Position numbers and translations under genes: made by a program. Positions 11,561-21,351 of a stretch of DNA of 64,000 nucleotides are shown piece after piece; position 1 is the first letter of the stretch; each line of letters starts with the position of its first letter. The DNA comes from Acidimicrobiia bacterium (GTDB lineage: Bacteria > Actinomycetota > Acidimicrobiia > IMCC26256 > JAENVU01). The notes beneath the pieces are model-generated. The model was given only the letters and a program-made list of their open reading frames with translations. It was not told the DNA's origin and did no database searches. The stretch covers positions 6,750 to 70,749 of the forward strand of contig JANPMG010000009.1 of NCBI GenBank assembly GCA_031422675.1, in the 5' to 3' direction.

Positions 11561-11888
11561 GCGGAGGAGCCGGGTCGGGTCCGATGAGCGAAGGGGCAGC
11601 CCCTGGCTCGGCGCGTGCTGGCTCGCATGGAGTGGCGCGTCCGGTTGGAAACGCAGTTGCGTCGATTCCCGAGAATGCGACTCGCGGTTCCGGTGAGCGG
11701 TCTGCATTGGGACCACCGCGACGGGCTCGTGCTACGCGGCCTCTCCCGCCTGCCAGTGTTCGCCGGGCCCGCTCGCAACTGAACCGTGGATGCAGGCCTT
11801 GGTGTTCTTCACCGGTCGATTCCTACTAGAACGGGTCCTGCCCGCACCCCGGCCGGGCCCCGCCACCGTCGATTCCCCTGGAGCCACC

Positions 11889-12995
11889 ATGGAACCCGTC
11901 GCCCTCGACGAGTACCCGATCCACCAGGCGCCGCTGTCGCTGCGCCATGTGCCCGCCAGCGACCGCAACTTCTACGACCGGTGTTACTTCAATGCCCACG
12001 ACCGCACCGGCGACATCTTCCTCATCACCGGCGGCGGGGTGTATCCCAACCTCGGCGTGGTCGACGCGTACGCGTGTGTGCGCCGCGGCGACACGCAGTG
12101 GAGTGTCCGCTGTTCCGACGCCCTCGACGACCGGCCACTCGATCTCGAAGTGGGTCCGTACCGGATCGAGGTCATCGACCCGCTGAAGCAGATCCGCATC
12201 ATCTGCGACGCCGACGAGCACGGCATCGGCTTCGATCTCACGTGGAACGGTTCGCATCCGGCGACGATGGAACAACCGCACCTCATGCGCAGCGGTCCGA
12301 ACGCGATCCTGGACGCATCTCGCTTCGCGCAGCTCGGGAGTTGGGAAGGATCACTCCGCGTCGACGGCGACGAGATCGCGGTCACGCCCGACACGTGGCT
12401 CGGCAGCCGCGACCGTTCGTGGGGTATCCGGCCGGTCGGCGAAGCGGCCGGGCCCGGCCGCGGGGCCGAGGAGTTCTTCGAAGGCTTGTGGTGGCTCTAC
12501 GTGCCGCTGCGGTTCGACGACTTCTCACTCATCGTGATCTGTCAAGAATCGCCCGACGGATTCCGCACCCTGAACGACGCAACGCGCGTCTGGGCCGACG
12601 GACGAGTGGAACAGCTCGGGTGGCCCGAGGTCACGATCGACTATACGAGCGGCACCCGCATCCCCGAGCGTGCCCACATCCGGCTCACCGCGCGCGACGG
12701 CACGCCCCTCGCCCTCGAAGTGGAGTCCCTCGGTTACGCAGTGCTCCACCAGGGCGCCGGGTACGGCGGCGACTCGGGCTGGACCCACGGCACCTGGCGC
12801 GGCCCCAACTGGATCGAGGGCCAGGTCTATGACCTCAACGACCCCGCCAACCTCGCGATGCGGCCGTTCGGCGTGATCGACCACGTGGGGAAGGCAACGT
12901 TGAACGGCGAGACCGGATGGGGCCTCTTCGAGCACGGCACCATCGGCCGTCACGATCCGTCCGGGTTCGCGGACGTGGGATCGGTCGCACCCTGA
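11889..12995 (+). CDS. conserved actinobacterial hypothetical protein, possibly AttH/tocopherol-cyclase-like beta fold
   Basis: DEYPIHQ...[11 protein letters not shown] and an RDRSWG motif; beta-rich composition. Confidence 0.6.
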
Positions 12996-13009: not shown

Positions 13010-13770
13010 TTGGGATCGAGGGGCGGTGTCACGGACACGGTGATCGTCGGCGCGGGACTCGCCGGTCTCGCCGCCGCACGCACGCTCACCGACGCCGGAC
13101 ACGAGGTCGTGCTCCTCGAAGGGTCCGACGGAGTGGGCGGCCGAGTGCGCACGGACGTCGTCGACGGGTTCCGGCTCGACGGGGGCTTCCAGGTGCTGCT
13201 CACCGCATATCCCGATGTCGCCCGTCAACTCGACGTCGCCGCGCTCGATCTTCGCGTCTTCGGCCCCTGATCGGCGGCATCCAGCTCGACCCCGAACTCG
13301 GCGCGAGCAGTCGCATGGTCGAAGTGGTGTTGCGGTGTCTCGCAGTCGGCGATTCGGCGGTCCCTGCGACCGGGATGCAGTCCATTCCGGACCAACTCGC
13401 GCGGCGGCTGCCGGACGGAGTGCTTCGGCTCGACACGCCGGTCACGAACATCACCGAGGGCGCGGTCACGACCGCGAGCGGCGAGGTCGTACGCGCCGCC
13501 AATGTGGTGGTGGCGACCAAAGGTCCGGCGGCCGCCGCGCTCCTCGGCCTACCCGCCGTCGGGTCCCGGTCGGTGGCCTGCGTCTGGTTCGCGGCAGACC
13601 AAGCTCCGTTCACCCACAAGCTGATCGCGCTCGACGGTTCGAGCACCGGCCCGGCGCTGAACGTGAGCGTGATGACCAACGTGGCACCCGAGTACGGACC
13701 GCCCGGATCGACGCTGATCGGCGCCGCATGTCCGGGCCGGACCGACACAGACCTCGAAGTGGCGGTGCAC
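13010..13770 (+). pseudogene. FAD-dependent amine oxidase/phytoene-desaturase-like oxidoreductase, internally deleted, frameshifted and 3'-truncated
   Basis: GAGLAG...GGRVRTD...[10 protein letters not shown] stops at 13270. The downstream part ([13 protein letters not shown]...GMQSIPDQLA) resumes in another frame and ends near 13770. Confidence 0.8.
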
Positions 13771-13923
13771 GCGCCACGCTGCGCGAGTGCTCGCGATGAT
13801 CTCGCAGCCGAGCACCACCTCCACCGACGCAGCACTCGGCTCCGGCCGGGGCGGCCGGGGATAGTCCCAGACCGACTCTTCTCCCGGGCCGACCGGATCG
13901 CGCGCCGATCGCTCGACGTTCAC
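13767..13923 (-). pseudogene. DUF427-family protein, 5' fragment
   Basis: ESVWDYPRPP...EIIASTRAAWRV; homology then stops, with no LETxHPPxYY. Confidence 0.7.
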
Positions 13924-14111
13924 ACCGGGCGCGGGAGACGCGGCTGCGCCTCGATTTCACCGAAGCCGTCGGCGCGGTGCTCGAGCTGGAGCGTCACCTC
14001 GTCGTCGGGCTTCTCGAACGAACCGAACACGACGAAGCCGTAGAGGAACACCGCCGCGGCAACCGCAACAAAGACGACCGCGCCGATCTGGAAAATCACA
14101 CTCCGGCTCAC
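13920..14111 (-). CDS. small single-TM membrane protein
   Basis: Hydrophobic N-terminal helix; GTGA overlaps with both neighbours. Confidence 0.6.
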   Translation of the reverse strand: MSRSVIFQIGAVVFVAVAAAVFLYGFVVFGSFEKPDDEVTLQLEHRADGFGEIEAQPRLPRPV

Positions 14112-14317
14112 GACTGGTCCCTTTCACCCGCGAGCATCAATGCGCCGAGCGAGAGGATCGACGGGACCCAGATACCGACAAAGATTCCGGCACTCGTATC
14201 GTCTGCCACGAAATACAGGTACACCGACAGCAAGAACGACGCGAACGCCGCGCCGAACAGGATGAGTTTCACCGCGGTGAGCCGTCGGGCCCTCGTGGAG
14301 GTTGCGGTTGCGAACAT
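14108..14317 (-). CDS. small two-TM membrane protein
   Basis: AAGGAG RBS; two hydrophobic helices, GIFVGIWVPSILS. Confidence 0.7.
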   Translation of the reverse strand: MFATATSTRARRLTAVKLILFGAAFASFLLSVYLYFVADDTSAGIFVGIWVPSILSLGALMLAGERDQS

Positions 14318-14348
14318 CGGAACTCCTTGGTCGAGTGGGGCTACACGC

Positions 14349-14419
14349 CGTCTCCGGAACCAACTCGACCACTGGATGACCGGGTGACCCATCCGGATCC
14401 CCGACCAGATCCGTAGACG
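14349..14419. promoter_or_regulatory. back-to-back ECF (SigK-like) promoter motifs
   Basis: Plus strand: CCATCC(14389)-N17-CGTAGACG. Minus strand: TCATCC(14379)-N17-CGGAGACG. Confidence 0.55.
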
Positions 14420-14424
14420 TCGTG

Positions 14425-16011
14425 ATGGCCGAGGACGACGACCGAAACGAAGCCGAGATCAACACCCACCCGAGGATCGCCATGGACCACCAGCCGGACC
14501 CGCCGACCCGAGTGCTCGTTGCGGGCGCGACGGGATATCTCGGGCGACGGCTGGTGGGCGAGCTGGTTGCCATCGGGTGCAGCACGCGGTGCTTGGCGAG
14601 AACCCCGGCCAAGCTCGACGACGAAGGCTGGCGCGACCGGGTGCAGATCGTCACGGGCGATGTGCTCGACGCCGCGTCGCTCCAGCGGGCGATGGCGGAC
14701 GTGCAGGTCGCGTACTACCTCGTGCACTCGATCGGTTCGGGACCGAACTGGCAGGCGCGAGACCGCCAGGCGGCCGAGAACTTTCGCGACGCGGCCACCG
14801 CGGCCGGCGTCGATCAGATCGTGTACCTCGGTGGACTCGGTGACAGTGGCGACGCGCTCTCGGCCCATCTTCGGAGTCGCCACGAAGTCGGCGAGACCCT
14901 GCGCTCGGGGCCGGTGCCGGTCACCGAACTGCGCGCCGCCGTGGTCATCGGATCCGGGAGCGCCAGCTTCGAGATGCTGCGCCACCTCGTGGAGGTGCTG
15001 CCGATCATGACGACCCCCCGTTGGGTCGAGACGCGCGTCCAACCAATTGCCGTCCGGGACGTGCTCGCGTATCTCGTGGGCGTTCTCCACGCACCCGCCG
15101 GCTACGGCGAGATCCTCGAAGTCGGCGGGTCCGACGTCGTCACCTACCGCCGCATGATGGAGATCTACGCCGAAGAGGCCGGCCTCCCGCGGCGCGTCAT
15201 TCTTCCGGTGCCGGTCCTCAGCCCCCGGCTCTCGTCACTCTGGGTCGGGCTCGTCACTCCCATCCCCGCGACCCTGGCCCGACCGCTCATCGACAGCCTG
15301 GTGAACGAAGTCGTCGTGGTCAACCCGCGCATCGACGCCATCGTGGATCATCGGCCGACCGACTGCCGAACTGCGATCCGGCTGGCGCTCCGCCGCGTGG
15401 AAGATCTCGCCGTCACCACGCGCTGGACCGATGCCGAACTCCACGGTCGCTCGCCCGCGGACCCGATGCCGGCCGACCCGACGTGGTCCGGTGGAACGAT
15501 TCTCGCCGACGAACAGACGGCGTACACGAGCGCATCCGCCGACGCCGTCTACCGCGTCGTGTGTTCGCTCGGCGGGGACCGCGGCTGGCCGTCGGGCCAG
15601 TGGATGTGGACGATCCGCGGCTGGCTCGATCGCGCCGTCGGCGGGGTGGGCCTGCGCCGCGGCCGGCGTGATCCCGACGACCTGCGGGTCGGCGACGTCC
15701 TGGACTTCTGGCGGGTCGAAGCGATCGAGCCGAGCCGACGCGTTCGGCTACGCGCCGAGATGAAGCTTCCCGGCGAGGCCTGGCTCGAGTGGATCATCAC
15801 CGAAGAATCGCATCGCACACGGGTGGAGCAGCGAGCGCGCTTTCATCCGCGTGGGTTGTTCGGGCGGGCCTATTGGTACGCCCTCCTACCGTTCCACCGA
15901 TTCGTGTTCCACCCGATGGCCCAGCGCATTGCCGCACGCGCCGAGTTGTCGGAACTTGCGCCGGCCATTCCGCTCCGCACCGCGCAACGCCCCACCCACG
16001 ATCGGCTCTGA
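14425..16011 (+). CDS. atypical SDR (NAD(P)H-binding) with C-terminal DUF2867, YbjT-like
   Basis: GATGYLG, YYLVHS, HLRSRHEV, GSGSASFE, LRAEMKLPGEAWLE; start may instead be 14422 or 14482. Confidence 0.85.
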   Translation: MAEDDDRNEAEINTHPRIAMDHQPDPPTRVLVAGATGYLGRRLVGELVAIGCSTRCLARTPAKLDDEGWRDRVQIVTGDVLDAASLQRAMADVQVAYYLVHSIGSGPNWQARDRQAAENFRDAATAAGVDQIVYLGGLGDSGDALSAHLRSRHEVGETLRSGPVPVTELRAAVVIGSGSASFEMLRHLVEVLPIMTTPRWVETRVQPIAVRDVLAYLVGVLHAPAGYGEILEVGGSDVVTYRRMMEIYAEEAGLPRRVILPVPVLSPRLSSLWVGLVTPIPATLARPLIDSLVNEVVVVNPRIDAIVDHRPTDCRTAIRLALRRVEDLAVTTRWTDAELHGRSPADPMPADPTWSGGTILADEQTAYTSASADAVYRVVCSLGGDRGWPSGQWMWTIRGWLDRAVGGVGLRRGRRDPDDLRVGDVLDFWRVEAIEPSRRVRLRAEMKLPGEAWLEWIITEESHRTRVEQRARFHPRGLFGRAYWYALLPFHRFVFHPMAQRIAARAELSELAPAIPLRTAQRPTHDRL

Positions 16012-16026
16012 AAGGATCCCATCACG

Positions 16027-16470
16027 ATGCCCCGATACGAAACCAGCAATCACACACCGTGGTCCGTCGAGCGCGCCTTCGCGTACATGAGCGACCTTCG
16101 CCACTTCGAGGATTGGGATCCGGGCGTCTCTCGATCGGTCCAAGTCATCGGCACCGAGCCGCGGCTCGGCGCTGCCTACGACGTCACCGTGTCGAGTCCC
16201 GGGCCGAACCTGACCCTCCGATACGAGACAGTTGGGTTCGACGCACCCCGTCGGATCGAGGTCCGAGCCGAATCCCGTACGCTGCTCTCGATCGACACGA
16301 TCACGGTGACGCCGGACGGTGCAACCGGCGCCACTGTCACCTACGCCGCCGAGCTGTCGTTGCGCGGCACCCTCGGCATCGCCAACCCGATCTTGGGTCT
16401 GGCGTTCAATCGCATCGGCGACCGCGCCGCGCACGGACTGAGGCAGGCGATCGAGGGAACCGAGACGTGA
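16027..16470 (+). CDS. SRPBCC/START (polyketide cyclase-like) lipid-binding protein
   Basis: AFAYMSD...WDPGV, beta-rich core, C-terminal helix. Confidence 0.8.
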   Translation: MPRYETSNHTPWSVERAFAYMSDLRHFEDWDPGVSRSVQVIGTEPRLGAAYDVTVSSPGPNLTLRYETVGFDAPRRIEVRAESRTLLSIDTITVTPDGATGATVTYAAELSLRGTLGIANPILGLAFNRIGDRAAHGLRQAIEGTET

Positions 16471-17456
16471 GCACGGAGGCGGCGAACGCGCCGATGCTCG
16501 AAGAGCGCCTCGCAATGTTGGCTGCGCTGGTGAGCGGGGACGCAACGCTCGCCTACCGACTCGCGAGCGACTGTCTCGCGAATGGCGTGTCGTTCCATCG
16601 GATCGTCGACCACGTGTTGCAACCGGTGCAGGAGGATCTCGGCCACCGGTGGGCCGACGGTGAACTCGGAATCGCCGACGAACATGCGGCGACGGCTGCC
16701 GTGGAGGAGCTGTTGGTGAAGCTCGGCGCCACGGTCGAGACACCCCGCGGGCCGACGGTCGTCGTGGTCAGCGCCCCCGGCGACACCCACTCGCTCGGCC
16801 TCCGCGCCGTCTGGGGTGCGCTCGCGCTCGACGGGTTCCGTTCCGTGTACCTCGGCAGTTCGGTGCCGGCCACCGACCTGGCCGAGTTCCTCGAGTTCCA
16901 CGAGCCGCTCGCGGTCGCCCTCGGCTGCTCGATCCCGGCGGCCCTCACCGGCGCGGCCGAAGCAACCCGCGCGGCACATCGCGTCGGAGTTCCCGTACTC
17001 GGAGGTGGTCGCGCACTCCGGAACGTCGACCGCGCCACGCGGCTCGGTGTCGACGCATTCGCGCCCAACGCCGCCGAAGCCGTCACTCGATTCCGCGCCT
17101 GGACGACCGCGCCCCCCGAACACCTCGCGCCAACCCTCGAACCGATCATCGAACACCACCGACTCGCGGCGCGCGGGCCGACGTTGATCGCCGCCGCCCT
17201 CGATCGCAGCGCCATCACCGAGAGTTCTCGTACCGCCATGGCCGAAGATCTCGCCCGCCTCCTCGCGATCGTCGAAGCGGCGATCCTCCTCGACGACGCG
17301 GCAATCATCGACGAGCACCTGGCGTGGTTGCGCGACACCAGCGCCGCCCACGGAATCGATCGGAACCACGTGGACAGAACCATTCGAGATCTGGCCGACG
17401 CCCTCGACGGTGATCTGCTGCGCGCGGGCGAGTTTCTCCGATGTGCAATCGGTTGA
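16467..17456 (+). CDS. cobalamin-binding photoreceptor-type protein (CarH-like B12 module, no HTH) with C-terminal helical domain
   Basis: W-x9-EH (WADGELGIADEH), DxHxxG (DTHSLG), YLG, GG; GTG start overlaps the SRPBCC stop. Confidence 0.85.
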   Translation: MSTEAANAPMLEERLAMLAALVSGDATLAYRLASDCLANGVSFHRIVDHVLQPVQEDLGHRWADGELGIADEHAATAAVEELLVKLGATVETPRGPTVVVVSAPGDTHSLGLRAVWGALALDGFRSVYLGSSVPATDLAEFLEFHEPLAVALGCSIPAALTGAAEATRAAHRVGVPVLGGGRALRNVDRATRLGVDAFAPNAAEAVTRFRAWTTAPPEHLAPTLEPIIEHHRLAARGPTLIAAALDRSAITESSRTAMAEDLARLLAIVEAAILLDDAAIIDEHLAWLRDTSAAHGIDRNHVDRTIRDLADALDGDLLRAGEFLRCAIG

Positions 17457-17470
17457 GCGTCCGCGAGCCG

Positions 17471-18037
17471 CTACCGGTCTTCCTCCGTGAGCGCACCTCT
17501 CAGCCGCGCCAGGCCGGTGCGGATCCGACTCTTCACCGTCCCTTCCGGCTCACCCAACATCCGTGCGACCGTGCGGTAGCTGTGACCGCCGAAGTACGCG
17601 AGTTCAACGGCCCGCCGTTCGGATTCGGGGAGATCTGCGAGCGCCCGGCGCAGCGTCGTCGCCACCGAACGCGCCTCGACCTCGCCCTGCACGTCGGGCA
17701 CGGGCGTCAGTGGCTGGCGCGCCTCGCGCTCCTCACGCCGGAACCGCGCACCGTCTGCCCGCACCAGATCCAACGCTCGGCCGTGAGTGATCGCGAGCAG
17801 GAACGATCGCAACGTGCCGGTGGGCGCATCGAAGCGGTCCCACTTCTCCCACAGTCGCAGGAACACCTCCTGTGTCACCTCTTCGGCCCGCGCCTGGTCG
17901 CCGACGAGTCGACGGGCGAACGCCAGCACCGGTCCACGATGACGGCGCATGATCTCGGCCATGGCCGAGTCGTCGCCGCCTCGCAAACCCGCCACCAGGT
18001 CCGACTCCGAAACTTTCGCGATCGGCTCAGACGACAC
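17471..18037 (-). CDS. ECF RNA polymerase sigma factor, SigK-like
   Basis: AEEVTQEVFLRLW...FD, LAYFGGHSYR, GTVKSRIR; GGAGG RBS before GTG 18037. Confidence 0.9.
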   Translation of the reverse strand: MSSEPIAKVSESDLVAGLRGGDDSAMAEIMRRHRGPVLAFARRLVGDQARAEEVTQEVFLRLWEKWDRFDAPTGTLRSFLLAITHGRALDLVRADGARFRREEREARQPLTPVPDVQGEVEARSVATTLRRALADLPESERRAVELAYFGGHSYRTVARMLGEPEGTVKSRIRTGLARLRGALTEEDR

Positions 18038-18095
18038 CGGTTCCTCCCCCTCGCACACTACCGAGCGCGCCTGAATCGAACCCCGGGGGAATGTC

Positions 18096-18896
18096 ATGAA
18101 CCGTGACTCGCTCAACCCGGCCCAACCCGACGGGGACCCCGGCGGTCATGGGATCGCCCTCGCTGCGCTCCGACGCTGGAACGTCGGTTTGGCCGTACTG
18201 CATCTGGCCCAGGCGGTCGCGGTGTTGGCGCTCACCAACGCGCGGTCGCTGCCCGTCACCGCGGCCTTCGGGAACGGTCCGCCCGGTCAACCCCAAGGAC
18301 CGCTCGAGCTCGAAACTCTCTTCTCGTACCGGATCGGTTGGGCGGTAGCCGCGTTCCTGATCCTGTCGGCCGGGTTCCACGGCCTCGTCACCACCGGATG
18401 GGGATTCCGGCAGTACTCAGCCGAGATCGACGCGTCCCGAAACCGATTTCGGTGGGTCGAGTACTCGTTGTCAGCGTCGGTGATGATCGTGCTGATCGCC
18501 GGGACCGTCGGCATCACCGATGTGGCCGCGCTGCTCGGACTCTTCGCCGCGAACGCCGCGATGATTCTGTTCGGGTGGCTCATGGAAACGACGTCCCGAC
18601 CGGGCCCGGGCGCAACGTGGTCACCCTTCGTGTTCGGCTGCATCGCCGGAGCGGTCCCGTGGGCCGCGATCACGATCTATCTCGTCGGTGCCGGCGGCGA
18701 CGTTCCGGGCTTCGTCTATGGAATCTTCGTCTCGCTCTTCGTGTTCTTCAACTGTTTCGCCGCCAACCAGTTCTTGCAGTACCGGGCGCGCGGACGCTGG
18801 GCCGACTACCGCTACGGCGAACGGGTCTACATGGTGCTCAGTCTCGTAGCGAAATCGCTCCTTGCGTGGCAGGTCTTTGCCAACGTCCTCGTCTGA
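18096..18896 (+). CDS. heR: heliorhodopsin
   Basis: Seven TM helices; LHLAQ, GFH, NRFRWVEYSLSAS (counterion Glu), ERVYMVLSLVAKSLLAW (retinal-binding Lys). Confidence 0.95.
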   Translation: MNRDSLNPAQPDGDPGGHGIALAALRRWNVGLAVLHLAQAVAVLALTNARSLPVTAAFGNGPPGQPQGPLELETLFSYRIGWAVAAFLILSAGFHGLVTTGWGFRQYSAEIDASRNRFRWVEYSLSASVMIVLIAGTVGITDVAALLGLFAANAAMILFGWLMETTSRPGPGATWSPFVFGCIAGAVPWAAITIYLVGAGGDVPGFVYGIFVSLFVFFNCFAANQFLQYRARGRWADYRYGERVYMVLSLVAKSLLAWQVFANVLV

Positions 18897-18912
18897 CCCC
18901 CTCACCCCATAA

Positions 18913-18976
18913 CCGCAACTCGCACCAAATACGCAAGCCCGGGCTCGCAAAACACGCGTTGGTTGGCGAGATTCGG
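18913..18976. repeat. REP-like element, family B, copy 1
   Basis: CTCGCACCAAATACGCAAGCC-nn-GGCTCGCAAAACACGCGTTGGTT, shared with copies at 37105 and 42432. Confidence 0.8.
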
Positions 18977-19016
18977 GGCGAGATGAACGGACGATGCAAC
19001 CGCGCCCGGGGACCGG

Positions 19017-19994
19017 TTAGTCGCCGTGCGGGGAGACGAATCCGAGGTGCTCGGCGAGCGCGTCGGGTATCGGGGCCCCGGCAGCCGCGACGTCGGTGCG
19101 CATCTCGGCCTCGGAGCGAGCGCCCACCACTACTGCGGTCACCGCGGGATGGGCCAGGGCAAACTGCAGTGCCGCGGCGGCGAGCGTCACCCCCGCATCG
19201 GCGCACCGGTCGCGCAGCGCCATCGCCCGGGCCCGCATCCGGGGCGGCGCAGTCGCGTAGTCATAGGTTGCGTTCGCGTCGGGATCGGCGAGCAGGCCGC
19301 TGTTGAAGACCCCGCCGATGATCACGCCAACGCCCCGTTCGGCACAGCGCGGGAGCAGGACGTCACCACCGCTGGGATCGAGCAAGGTGTAGCGACCCGC
19401 GAGCAGCACACAGTCCAGGTCGACGCGTTGCACGAACCGGTCCAGCATCGGCCACTGGTTCATACCCGCGCCGACCGCGCCGATCACGCCCTGGTCTCGC
19501 AGTTCGATCAAGGCGGGAAAGACACCGGCCATGGCCGCGGCCTCGTGATCGTCCGGGTCATGTACGTGGACGACATCAACCCGATCCACACCGAGGCGTT
19601 CGAGGCTCGCTTCGATCGATCGCAACGTGTCGTCGCGTGAGTAGGCGAACACCGGATCGAGGTTCGGCACGTCGGTGAAGACCGAGGTGGGAGCAGCACC
19701 CGAGGGTGGTCGCAGCACGCGGCCGACCTTGGTGGCCAGAACGAACTCGTCCCGGGGCCGGGATGCGAGCGCACGACCCAGCCGGCGCTCGGCGAGCCCG
19801 TGGCCGTAGAGCGGCGCGGTGTCGAAGAATCGGATGCCCGCATCCCACGCCGCACCGACGGTGGCATCCGCCGCCGCGTCACTCACCGCCGCGAAGAGGT
19901 TGCCGAGGGGCGCGGTACCGAGACCGAGGCACGTCACCACCAGGCCGCGCCGCCCGAGCGATCGCCGTTCCGGGATCACCGGGGAGTCGTCCAT
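19017..19994 (-). CDS. aldo/keto reductase (D-threo-aldose/L-fucose dehydrogenase-like)
   Basis: GTAPLGNL, DTAPLYG, TKVGR, HDPD, LLAGRYTL, GGVFNSG. Confidence 0.85.
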   Translation of the reverse strand: MDDSPVIPERRSLGRRGLVVTCLGLGTAPLGNLFAAVSDAAADATVGAAWDAGIRFFDTAPLYGHGLAERRLGRALASRPRDEFVLATKVGRVLRPPSGAAPTSVFTDVPNLDPVFAYSRDDTLRSIEASLERLGVDRVDVVHVHDPDDHEAAAMAGVFPALIELRDQGVIGAVGAGMNQWPMLDRFVQRVDLDCVLLAGRYTLLDPSGGDVLLPRCAERGVGVIIGGVFNSGLLADPDANATYDYATAPPRMRARAMALRDRCADAGVTLAAAALQFALAHPAVTAVVVGARSEAEMRTDVAAAGAPIPDALAEHLGFVSPHGD

Positions 19995-21274: not shown

Positions 21275-21351
21275 ACCGATGCTCCTCGATTTCGCGACCG
21301 TCGCGCACCCACCGAGCCGCACATCCGACGCGATCCGGTACCGTACCGGCC

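Follow-up and report, generated by a model that had tools for sequence, protein, structure and literature searches.

Introduction

In Streptomyces, the B12-binding regulator LitR is paired with an extracytoplasmic function (ECF) sigma factor, LitS, in a system that is off in the dark and on in the light. LitR and CarH are MerR-type DNA binders, whereas AerR/PpaA, B12-binding antirepressors with a SCHIC domain and no photoglobin, have no DNA-binding domain and control the repressor CrtJ/PpsR, not a sigma factor, by protein contact. Here we describe a locus of an Acidimicrobiia bacterium in which a B12 protein, identified by its sequence and predicted structure as a stand-alone photocobilin, is encoded next to a SigK-like ECF sigma factor, with a heliorhodopsin (HeR) gene on the other side of the sigma gene. 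The locus lies in a stretch of 64,000 nucleotides (GenBank assembly GCA_031422675.1, contig JANPMG010000009.1, positions 6,750 to 70,749), which was analysed as a whole and is called the window. The photocobilin and the sigma factor form a conserved, co-diverging pair, which probably switches a small set of light-protection genes.

Photocobilins (SasPcob, 8J2W/8J2X; AbPcob, 8J2Y; Zhang et al., 2024, PMC10979010) and photoglobin-B12 proteins (Schneider et al., 2021, PMC8717448) have the same domain order as the window protein, namely B12-binding_2, B12-binding and a C-terminal five-helix globin. What stand-alone photocobilins do is described as 'less clear', and they are shown to work via protein-protein interactions (PMC10979010, sections 7-9). 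The partners named in the text of the two papers are histidine kinases, GGDEF, STAS/SpoIIE/PP2C, WhiB and helix-turn-helix (HTH) proteins, not ECF sigma factors (PMC10979010, PMC8717448). For the SigK-RskA system of Mycobacterium, the regulon includes MPT70/83 and the Rv0449c operon (PMC7509140, PMC9861118). SigK-dependent mpk70/mpk83 are light-induced in M. kansasii and the stimulus of SigK-RskA is described as obscure (PMC9861118). The pair described here suggests light as a candidate signal for SigK-type sigma factors. The regulon of SigE-ChrR, which mediates the singlet-oxygen/blue-light response in Rhodobacter and Vibrio, is described as including photolyase and membrane-lipid genes (PMC5241685).

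The locus shares features with each of these systems. Its B12 protein stands alone like SasPcob and has the W-x-EH and DxH motifs and the full-length fold common to photocobilins; unlike the characterised photocobilins, to which it is only about 30% identical, its suggested partner is an ECF sigma factor. The sigma factor resembles that of SigK-RskA (4NQW) in its closest solved structure, its best NCBIfam family, its nesting among RskA-linked sigma factors and the CATCC -35 element, and fasciclin and amine-oxidase genes are found as neighbours or targets. It differs by the lack of an adjacent RskA, a -10 element that is mostly CGTA or CGGA and not CGAA, an NCBIfam score below the cut-off and a cytoplasmic photoreceptor as neighbour. 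Common with SigE-ChrR are the second-closest solved sigma factor (2q1z) and neighbours encoding DUF1295, acyltransferase and amine oxidase, but while ChrR is a zinc anti-sigma factor that responds to singlet oxygen, the candidate sensor here is a direct photoreceptor. As in LitR/LitS and CarH systems, a photoreceptor domain of the adenosylcobalamin (AdoCbl) type is genetically linked to an ECF sigma factor and light-protection genes, and the dark-off/light-on logic would be the same; unlike LitR and CarH, the window protein has no HTH, and control would go via sigma contact, as in the protein-contact mode of AerR/PpaA, and not via promoter binding. Photocobilins and photoglobins (2021, 2024), SigK-RskA and LitR/LitS are known already; the window adds an actinobacterial clade without RskA and with convergent genes, a defined promoter motif and the occasional recruitment of HeR.

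Gene organisation of the locus

The window has a G+C content of ~68%, and genes were chosen via codon-position G+C and profile matches (Pfam, NCBIfam). The pair and its surroundings comprise the following features.

14348-14378, minus strand: ECF-type promoter P2, divergent and back-to-back with P1 (position weight matrix (PWM) score 17.8)
14390-14427, plus strand: ECF (SigK-family)-type promoter P1 (de novo motif, PWM 20.1)
14425-16011, plus strand: NAD(P)-binding (NmrA/epimerase-like) and DUF2867 gene, first of the operon; longest open reading frame (ORF) from GTG 14422 (Pfam DUF2867 E 2.4e-37, NAD_binding_10 E 8.4e-16)
16027-16470, plus strand: SRPBCC (Polyketide_cyc2) gene (Pfam E 7.7e-15)
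16467-17456, plus strand: predicted stand-alone photocobilin, 329 aa (PF02607 B12-binding_2 E 9.1e-12, PF02310 B12-binding E 6.2e-12)
17471-18037, minus strand: SigK-like ECF sigma factor, 188 aa, no adjacent RskA (PF04542 and PF08281, regions 2 and 4)
18038-18075, minus strand: conserved leader or promoter-proximal element upstream of the sigma gene (kept in the related loci L001 and L002)
18096-18896, plus strand: HeR, 266 aa, 48C12-like (Pfam E 1.7e-95, NCBIfam HeR 300.7 bits)

The first gene product, with its NAD(P)-binding and DUF2867 domains (NAD-DUF2867 in the following), has a YbjT-like architecture. Its gene is separated by 15 bp from the SRPBCC gene, whose stop is overlapped by 4 bp by the GTG start of the photocobilin gene. 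Photocobilin and sigma genes are convergent with 14 bp between them, and the starts of the sigma and HeR genes are divergent across 58 bp (all gaps read from the sequence). The start of the sigma gene was placed at GTG 18037, with a GGGAGGA ribosome site upstream and orthologues aligning from residue 1; the longest ORF would begin at TTG 18115. A preliminary description of this DNA had named the same genes, and every gene and coordinate was correct: heR diverges from the SigK-like sigma gene across about 60 bp, the sigma gene converges on the B12 sensor as the last gene of an operon with YbjT-like and SRPBCC genes, and no RskA-type anti-sigma gene stands beside it, as the flanks contain no RskA, RskA_C or zf-HC2 match (Pfam).

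The B12 protein is a photocobilin and not a CarH-type repressor

The photocobilin consists of a four-helix bundle, a Rossmann B12 domain and a C-terminal five-helix photoglobin (about residues 230-328). W62-x9-E72-H73 and D106-x-H108 are invariant across 21 same-length relatives, and D106 is nearly invariant in a 25-sequence alignment. W-x(9-10)-EH and E/DxH, the latter with the lower-ligand histidine, are given as photoreceptor signatures of CarH and photocobilins (PMC10979010, section 7). In phmmer searches the protein matched 8j2y with E 1.9e-30 and 8j2x/8j2w with 2.8e-24 and 2.9e-24, and these alignments reach residue 299-315, so into the C-terminal domain. An AlphaFold2 model (pLDDT 89.2, pTM 0.86) has helices at 230-328 and was superimposed by Foldseek on photocobilin structures over the full length (TM 0.82-0.87, about 330 columns), whereas CarH-type structures cover the B12 half alone (TMq about 0.5). 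Pfam and NCBIfam returned the two B12 domains only, with no HTH or MerR match, and the NCBIfam CarH profile matched at positions 86-261 only, with 59 bits against a cut-off of 400. The B12 domain begins about 16 residues from the N-terminus; a CarH/LitR-type MerR repressor was ruled out, as the protein is without an N-terminal MerR HTH. Profiles, alignments and the structural model thus agree on a stand-alone photocobilin, that is, a CarH-type B12 domain with a probably bilin-binding photoglobin and no DNA-binding domain.

Since the C-terminal domain is a photoglobin of the putatively bilin-binding type, the protein itself may hold two chromophores, B12 and bilin. An Asp and a Trp align with the bilin-contacting Asp270 and Trp296 of SasPcob, according to a manual count that allows for a shift of 5 residues in the chain relative to the published numbering. 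Relatives carry Asp or Glu at the Asp270 position, and the Trp at the W296 position is lost in a distant subgroup. The other B12-binding_2 matches of the genome are a 1247-aa open frame, taken as methionine synthase, and a 260-aa corrinoid protein adjoining an IclR gene; a MerR-B12 (LitR-type) regulator was not found in the genome by this search. The analogy to LitR/LitS that had been drawn initially is consequently a loose one, with no DNA-binding B12 regulator at the locus and none found in the genome.

The photocobilin and the sigma factor are a conserved pair

Contigs were scanned with one genome per species, by which 584 stretches were matched, 331 relatives obtained and 80 loci kept. The full-length photocobilin family is represented by 36 of the kept loci (L001-L036), all from metagenome-assembled genomes (MAGs) labelled Acidimicrobiia or Actinomycetes, and neighbours in them were located by tblastn with the window proteins. 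An ECF sigma factor 48-68% identical to that of the window is encoded within ~2.1 kb of the photocobilin in 25/36 loci. As two of the 11 ECF-less loci end at the photocobilin gene because of the contig end and are not evaluable, sigma factor and B12 protein are co-conserved in 25 of the 34 evaluable loci. The two genes are convergent with small gaps in 21/25 loci and divergent at 0.7-2.1 kb in 4/25. The ECF sigma factor is by far the most constant neighbour of the photocobilin, as NAD-DUF2867 was found in 10/36, SRPBCC in 7/36 and HeR in 4/36 loci. Other recurrent neighbours encode DNA photolyase, flavin amine oxidases, DUF427, CbiX, short-chain dehydrogenase/reductase (SDR), fasciclin, DUF4397, DUF1295 with acyltransferase, and two small membrane proteins. 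No description of the photocobilin-ECF pair or of a link between DUF2867 and light was found in the abstracts and text passages searched.

In the photocobilin tree the ECF-linked proteins form two clades (19 and 7 rows) with the same deep split as the ECF tree described below, and 8/9 ECF-less loci fall outside of them. Could such a pattern be inherited synteny, with no regulatory link among sigma factor, photocobilin and HeR? Many loci stem from related MAG lineages, so that counts are not independent, and the window, L001 and L002 constitute one close clade. However, linkage is kept down to 41% photocobilin identity and in two gene orientations, flanking genes are reshuffled across loci while the pair stays together, and a promoter motif is common to the loci, and we find synteny alone hardly credible as an explanation.

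The sigma factor nests among RskA-linked SigK-like proteins

SigK was the best of 89 NCBIfam matches of the sigma factor (146.3 bits, below the 226-bit cut-off). Of the solved sigma factors, SigK of M. tuberculosis (4nqw, E 1e-24) comes closest, and RpoE of the R. sphaeroides ChrR system (2q1z, E 3.1e-18) is second. The sole RskA_C match in the 97.7%-complete genome is located on a different contig, where it immediately follows the gene of a second SigK-like ECF protein, 52% identical to that of the window; 'orphan' is a fair description of the window's sigma factor. In a maximum-likelihood tree of 64 rows, to which 24 RskA loci of the same class contributed their ECF sigma factors, the 25 photocobilin-linked sigma factors form one clade (ultrafast bootstrap 99 / SH-aLRT 89) nested among RskA-linked SigK-like proteins. 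The RskA-linked SigK of the same genome is sister to this clade with weaker support (87/68). Group membership in the tree follows from the way in which the loci had been retrieved, and lineages in it that are related do not count as independent.

The place of RskA bears on a second explanation, in which the photocobilin would be a positive partner of the sigma factor: as an anti-anti-sigma factor or co-activator it would, in the light, remove or modify an RskA-type inhibitor, or stabilise the sigma factor. Planctomycete operons with the order ECF, RskA, B12 protein at two annotated loci and the one RskA in the window's genome fit this idea, as does the report of RskA as a dual activator-inhibitor of SigK (PMC7509140). 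On the other hand, RskA was not seen in the neighbour annotation near any of the 25 actinobacterial pairs, and the genome's only RskA has a separate SigK as its partner, and this SigK has a CATCC...CGAA promoter to itself. We therefore regard a positive role as improbable.

In the planctomycete-type loci L038-L057, mostly from Planctomycetota-labelled MAGs, ECF sigma factor and B12 protein are encoded on the same strand, often with NAD-DUF2867 nearby. The B12 protein of these loci has 353-367 aa, and its N-terminal ~145 aa are without a Pfam family.

Upstream of the window's sigma gene, the element at 18038-18075 contains GGTAGTGTGCGA before the ribosome site and is not of the CATCC-CGTA type. 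It was rejected as a shared regulon promoter, as it occurs once per locus only (window, L001, L002). A different element, ~40 nt long and highly conserved, is found in L004-L016 and L023 ~50 nt upstream of the ECF start, just before the sigma ribosome site. It contains GTAGCTTGGTC followed by an imperfect inverted repeat, is unlike that of the window clade, and might serve as an operator or form a hairpin in the leader.

A CATCC-N17-CGTA promoter precedes the photocobilin operon

For the motif search, all pairs of a 5-mer and a 4-mer with 14-18 nt spacing were enumerated in 204 upstream regions of 20 loci. The top-ranked pair of this unbiased enumeration was CATCC...CGTA, with 9 occurrences against 0.46 expected and the extended consensus tCATCCg-N16-(c)tCCGTAg. 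It was detected directly before photocobilin (6 loci), DUF427, fasciclin, photolyase, SRPBCC, SDR and DUF4397 genes. Since the motif usually lies 8-9 nt ahead of the start codon, it suggests leaderless mRNAs. In the 6 photocobilin cases the gene stands alone behind its own motif promoter and adjoins the ECF gene.

In the window, P1 consists of CATCC at 14390-14394, a 17-nt spacer and CGTA at 14412-14415, with 9 nt to ATG 14425, which suggests that the operon of NAD-DUF2867, SRPBCC and photocobilin starts leaderless or near-leaderless. Training of the PWM used 19 sites in 14 of the same loci and did not include the window site P1. P1 scored 20.1 compared to 16.6 for the best among 5 window shuffles and ties for rank 2 among the 25 hits of at least 16 in the whole 3.87-Mb genome. 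P2, with CATCC at 14378-14374 and the -10 variant CGGA (PWM 17.8), precedes the genes of two small membrane proteins and a DUF427 remnant. L001 and L002 possess the same bidirectional promoter pair with the CGGA variant. A scan of 13900-19100 for sigma-70-type promoters gave 0 sites.

A same-strand site of at least 15 within 4 kb upstream of the photocobilin was present in 20/26 ECF-linked versus 1/9 ECF-less loci, a count that is partly circular through training on the same loci, with 7/13 among the untrained loci having a site. For two of the 6 ECF-linked loci without a site, hardly any sequence is available upstream. In several loci the sigma gene itself is located downstream of NAD-DUF2867 on the same strand, and in L017 it closes an acyltransferase-DUF1295 operon bearing the CATCC-CGTA motif. 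RskA-linked ECF genes carry CATCC upstream in 15/24 cases, with CGAA as -10 in 9, CGGA in 4 and CGTA in 1. The SigK-RskA pair of the window's genome, which is one of these cases, has CATCC...CGAA. Judged by these upstream regions, the CATCC -35 element is a SigK-family feature, and co-location suggests that the window's sigma factor reads the CGTA/CGGA class of promoters. On the own-genome contig with the SigK-like ECF gene and the RskA_C gene behind it (C169, L081), CATCC...CGAA is situated about 38 nt before the ECF ORF.

Among the 25 genome hits of at least 16, the 10 annotated ones (ORFs most like gene starts) precede genes for a DnaJ-like protein, acyl-CoA dehydrogenase, cupredoxin, sulfotransferase, JetD and others. 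Because none of these 10 genome-wide targets is an obvious light gene, the regulon in the window's genome looks local. A strict-regex match before an SDR gene at 21322 was dropped, as its PWM score is below 12. The photoprotection regulon that the preliminary description had assumed fits the promoter of the operon and the photolyase neighbours in related loci.

Possible control of the sigma factor by light

The complex of photocobilin and ECF sigma factor was predicted with a pass mark that was reached by 58/80 solved complexes and 2/110 mismatched pairs; at an interface score (ipSAE) of 0.60 or under, it was reached by 7/80 solved complexes and both mismatches. The pair gave a median ipSAE of 0.35 (runs 0.37, 0.32 and 0.35), compared to 0.07 for the best of 3 controls, and was graded 'weak support'. 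Between runs, 88% or more of the contacts agree, and the pLDDT of the partner does not fall below 72.

We infer that the photocobilin binds the sigma factor, and that the sign of regulation is negative. In the mechanism that we propose, the sigma factor would recognise CATCC-N17-CGTA (or CGGA) promoters, which here would drive two back-to-back units, one of NAD-DUF2867, SRPBCC and photocobilin, the other of two small membrane proteins and the decayed DUF427. In the dark, the AdoCbl-loaded photocobilin would keep the sigma factor inactive by direct contact, in the place of RskA. Light would photolyse the cofactor and alter the conformation or oligomeric state of the photocobilin, and the sigma factor would be freed. 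It would then transcribe the protective genes together with new photocobilin and thereby reset the switch, fresh photocobilin being needed because photolysis of AdoCbl is irreversible.

That the photocobilin is a light-gated negative regulator, and thus functionally an anti-sigma factor of the ECF protein, is the most economical explanation and has in our estimation about an even chance of being right, judged from sequences and models. The more far-reaching proposal is put forward tentatively: a new kind of anti-sigma factor, in which a B12/bilin photoreceptor replaces RskA for a SigK paralogue in Actinomycetota, and light releases the sigma factor and turns on a photoprotection regulon. A light-switched anti-sigma role of the B12 protein had already been suggested in the preliminary description. 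The conserved pair, the photoreceptor motifs and the ECF promoter of the operon agree with it, while direct contact is so far predicted, at the grade and ipSAE given above.

Several observations weigh against an anti-sigma role. The predicted complex is a weak pass, and the promoter count partly depends on its own training loci. Pfam and NCBIfam detected no recognisable anti-sigma domain (zf-HC2, RskA) and no HxxxCxxC in the photocobilin. Sigma/anti-sigma pairs are normally co-transcribed, while photocobilin and ECF genes converge or, in 4 loci, diverge. The proximal upstream region of the sigma gene does not itself contain the CATCC-CGTA motif, and in L021 a family photocobilin is found with no ECF gene within its 5.4-kb contig. 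The RskA encoded elsewhere in the genome could cross-react with the window's sigma factor. In the two annotated planctomycete relatives, L039 and L051, RskA_C is retained between ECF and B12 protein, which implies that the B12 sensor can coexist with a classical anti-sigma factor and may act on RskA and not on the sigma factor. Heme oxygenase (PF01126), as a possible source of the bilin, was not found in the 97.7%-complete genome. In a subclade of three loci a CATCC...CGTA promoter precedes the gene of a short soluble protein (~64 aa) that carries the ZAS-like motif HxxxCxxC (L011 9745-9930, L012 12838-13029, L014 6436-6627) and this protein could be the true anti-sigma factor there. Its gene was found in 3/80 loci and not in the window.

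Some of these points fit a further explanation, in which the photocobilin is a mere member of the regulon or has another output, e.g. light-dependent contact with NAD-DUF2867, SRPBCC, amine oxidase or another protein, and the sigma factor is controlled otherwise, by RskA cross-talk, a small ZAS protein or transcription alone. Photocobilins have been shown to act in trans on an enzyme domain and modulate it (PMC10979010, section 8), and the photocobilin gene is translationally coupled to the SRPBCC gene. The HxxxCxxC protein under the same promoter, the RskA present in the genome and the weak-pass complex prediction also agree with such an output. By contrast, the photocobilin is linked to the ECF sigma factor in 25/36 loci compared to 10 for NAD-DUF2867 and 7 for SRPBCC, and it stands alone behind its own promoter beside the ECF gene in 6 loci. 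The ZAS gene is confined to the three loci above, and the deep splits are common to the ECF and photocobilin trees. Another output is thus rather unlikely, though to be taken seriously.

If the anti-sigma role proves true, stand-alone photocobilins gain a first physiological output, light would be indicated as the input of the SigK family that has long been obscure, and a protein-protein route from B12 photochemistry to transcription would exist beside the DNA-binding route of CarH/LitR. With a conserved sigma partner and a defined promoter, the output of a photocobilin becomes testable with two proteins and one promoter.

Heliorhodopsin is an occasional neighbour of the pair

The HeR gene of the window is intact and single-copy in the genome. 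Its product matches the Pfam family with 319 bits over residues 25-265 of 266 and the NCBIfam family with 300.7 bits against a cut-off of 100. It aligns to 48C12 (PDB 6su3/6uh3, E 2e-73), where the lysine in VAKS and the glutamate in WVEYS are both kept, which we take to be the Schiff-base (retinal-binding) lysine and the counter-ion, respectively. For the retinal supply, no BCD (Blh) match was obtained in the genome, with control genomes equally silent.

The window, L001, L002, L015 (partial match) and L023 have HeR at most ~4 kb away from the pair, in three arrangements: divergent from the sigma gene, on the same strand upstream of the sigma operon, and divergent from DUF427. In 14 further pair-bearing genomes, no HeR match was obtained in 11, which are MAGs of unstated completeness so that absence is not proven. 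One of the 14 has a HeR fragment ~10 kb from the pair and another a two-piece HeR ~180 kb from it, in both cases if the numbered contig is the same one. In genome G012 (L098/L099), HeR profile positions 1-78 and 79-242 are in different frames, by a frameshift or an assembly error. In G006, also one of the 14, HeR is intact on another contig, and a motif scoring 20.0 lies ahead of its ribosome site and ATG. The 300 bp ahead of HeR contain no ECF-type motif scoring at least 6 in any of the window, L001, L002, L015 and L023.

HeR is thus an occasional (facultative) neighbour and not a core component of the module. In the preliminary description HeR had been counted as part of the candidate light system, with a regulon that may include or respond to it. 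Its adjacency is real, but core membership is not borne out by the 11/14 pair-bearing genomes without a match. The motif before HeR in one other genome makes it a likely regulon member in at least that genome, while the lack of an ECF promoter at the five loci speaks against it there, and HeR is at most co-regulated in some genomes. If the regulon is as proposed, HeR has been recruited into it in some lineages.

HeRs have been proposed as sensory switches linked to photo-oxidative stress, and the words sigma, B12 and cobalamin do not occur in the main text of that context study (PMC8612252). This proposal, the divergent starts of the HeR and sigma genes 58 bp apart and the proximity of HeR to the pair, at most ~4 kb in the window and 4 other loci and in three arrangements, would suit a HeR that acts as membrane-anchored sensor controlling the orphan sigma factor, with the B12 protein secondary. 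The pair persists without HeR, however: it has no HeR match in the 11 MAGs of unstated completeness and HeR is remote in 2 of the 14 genomes. Moreover, apart from the Pfam core the HeR protein contains no additional cytoplasmic domain, and we consider control by HeR very unlikely. Since the adjacency of HeR is facultative, the window is not a general key to HeR output, though it places HeR among light-response genes in a few lineages.

Flanking genes and remnants

The region on the far side of P2 contains the following features.

14108-14317, minus strand: small two-helix membrane protein, 69 aa, first gene after P2 (ORF and AAGGAG ribosome site)
13920-14111, minus strand: second small membrane protein, 63 aa as listed (ORF; start overlaps the stop of the preceding gene)
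13768-13899, minus strand: DUF427 remnant, convergent to the amine oxidase remnant (tblastn with intact L002 orthologue, Pfam fragments)
13022-13770, plus strand: flavin amine oxidase remnant (tblastn with intact L002 orthologue, Pfam fragments)

Of the 427 residues of the amine oxidase, 15-97 and 180-348 are left, split over two frames, and of the 164 residues of DUF427, 6-49 are left; both regulon-type genes are intact in L002. The two remnants meet at about 13768-13770, which looks as though a single deletion had taken both 3' ends. A Rv3169-family protein (window 11790-12995, NCBIfam 490 bits) is encoded directly upstream of the amine oxidase remnant, in the same order as in L002.

For the 69-aa membrane protein no Pfam match was obtained. 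ORFs 70-81% identical to it are present in L003, L004, L007, L012, L015 and L023, and the second membrane protein follows the first directly in L004, L012, L015 and L023. Taken as a set, the two proteins (69 aa; ~40-63 aa) are 45-81% identical across the former six loci. Elsewhere their genes are located between DUF427 and CbiX or amine oxidase, in an operon ending with the photocobilin. In L004, L012, L014, L015 and L034 a gene for a small CbiX-type chelatase was found just upstream of the photocobilin or amine oxidase gene, so that a tetrapyrrole enzyme adjoins a tetrapyrrole-binding sensor.

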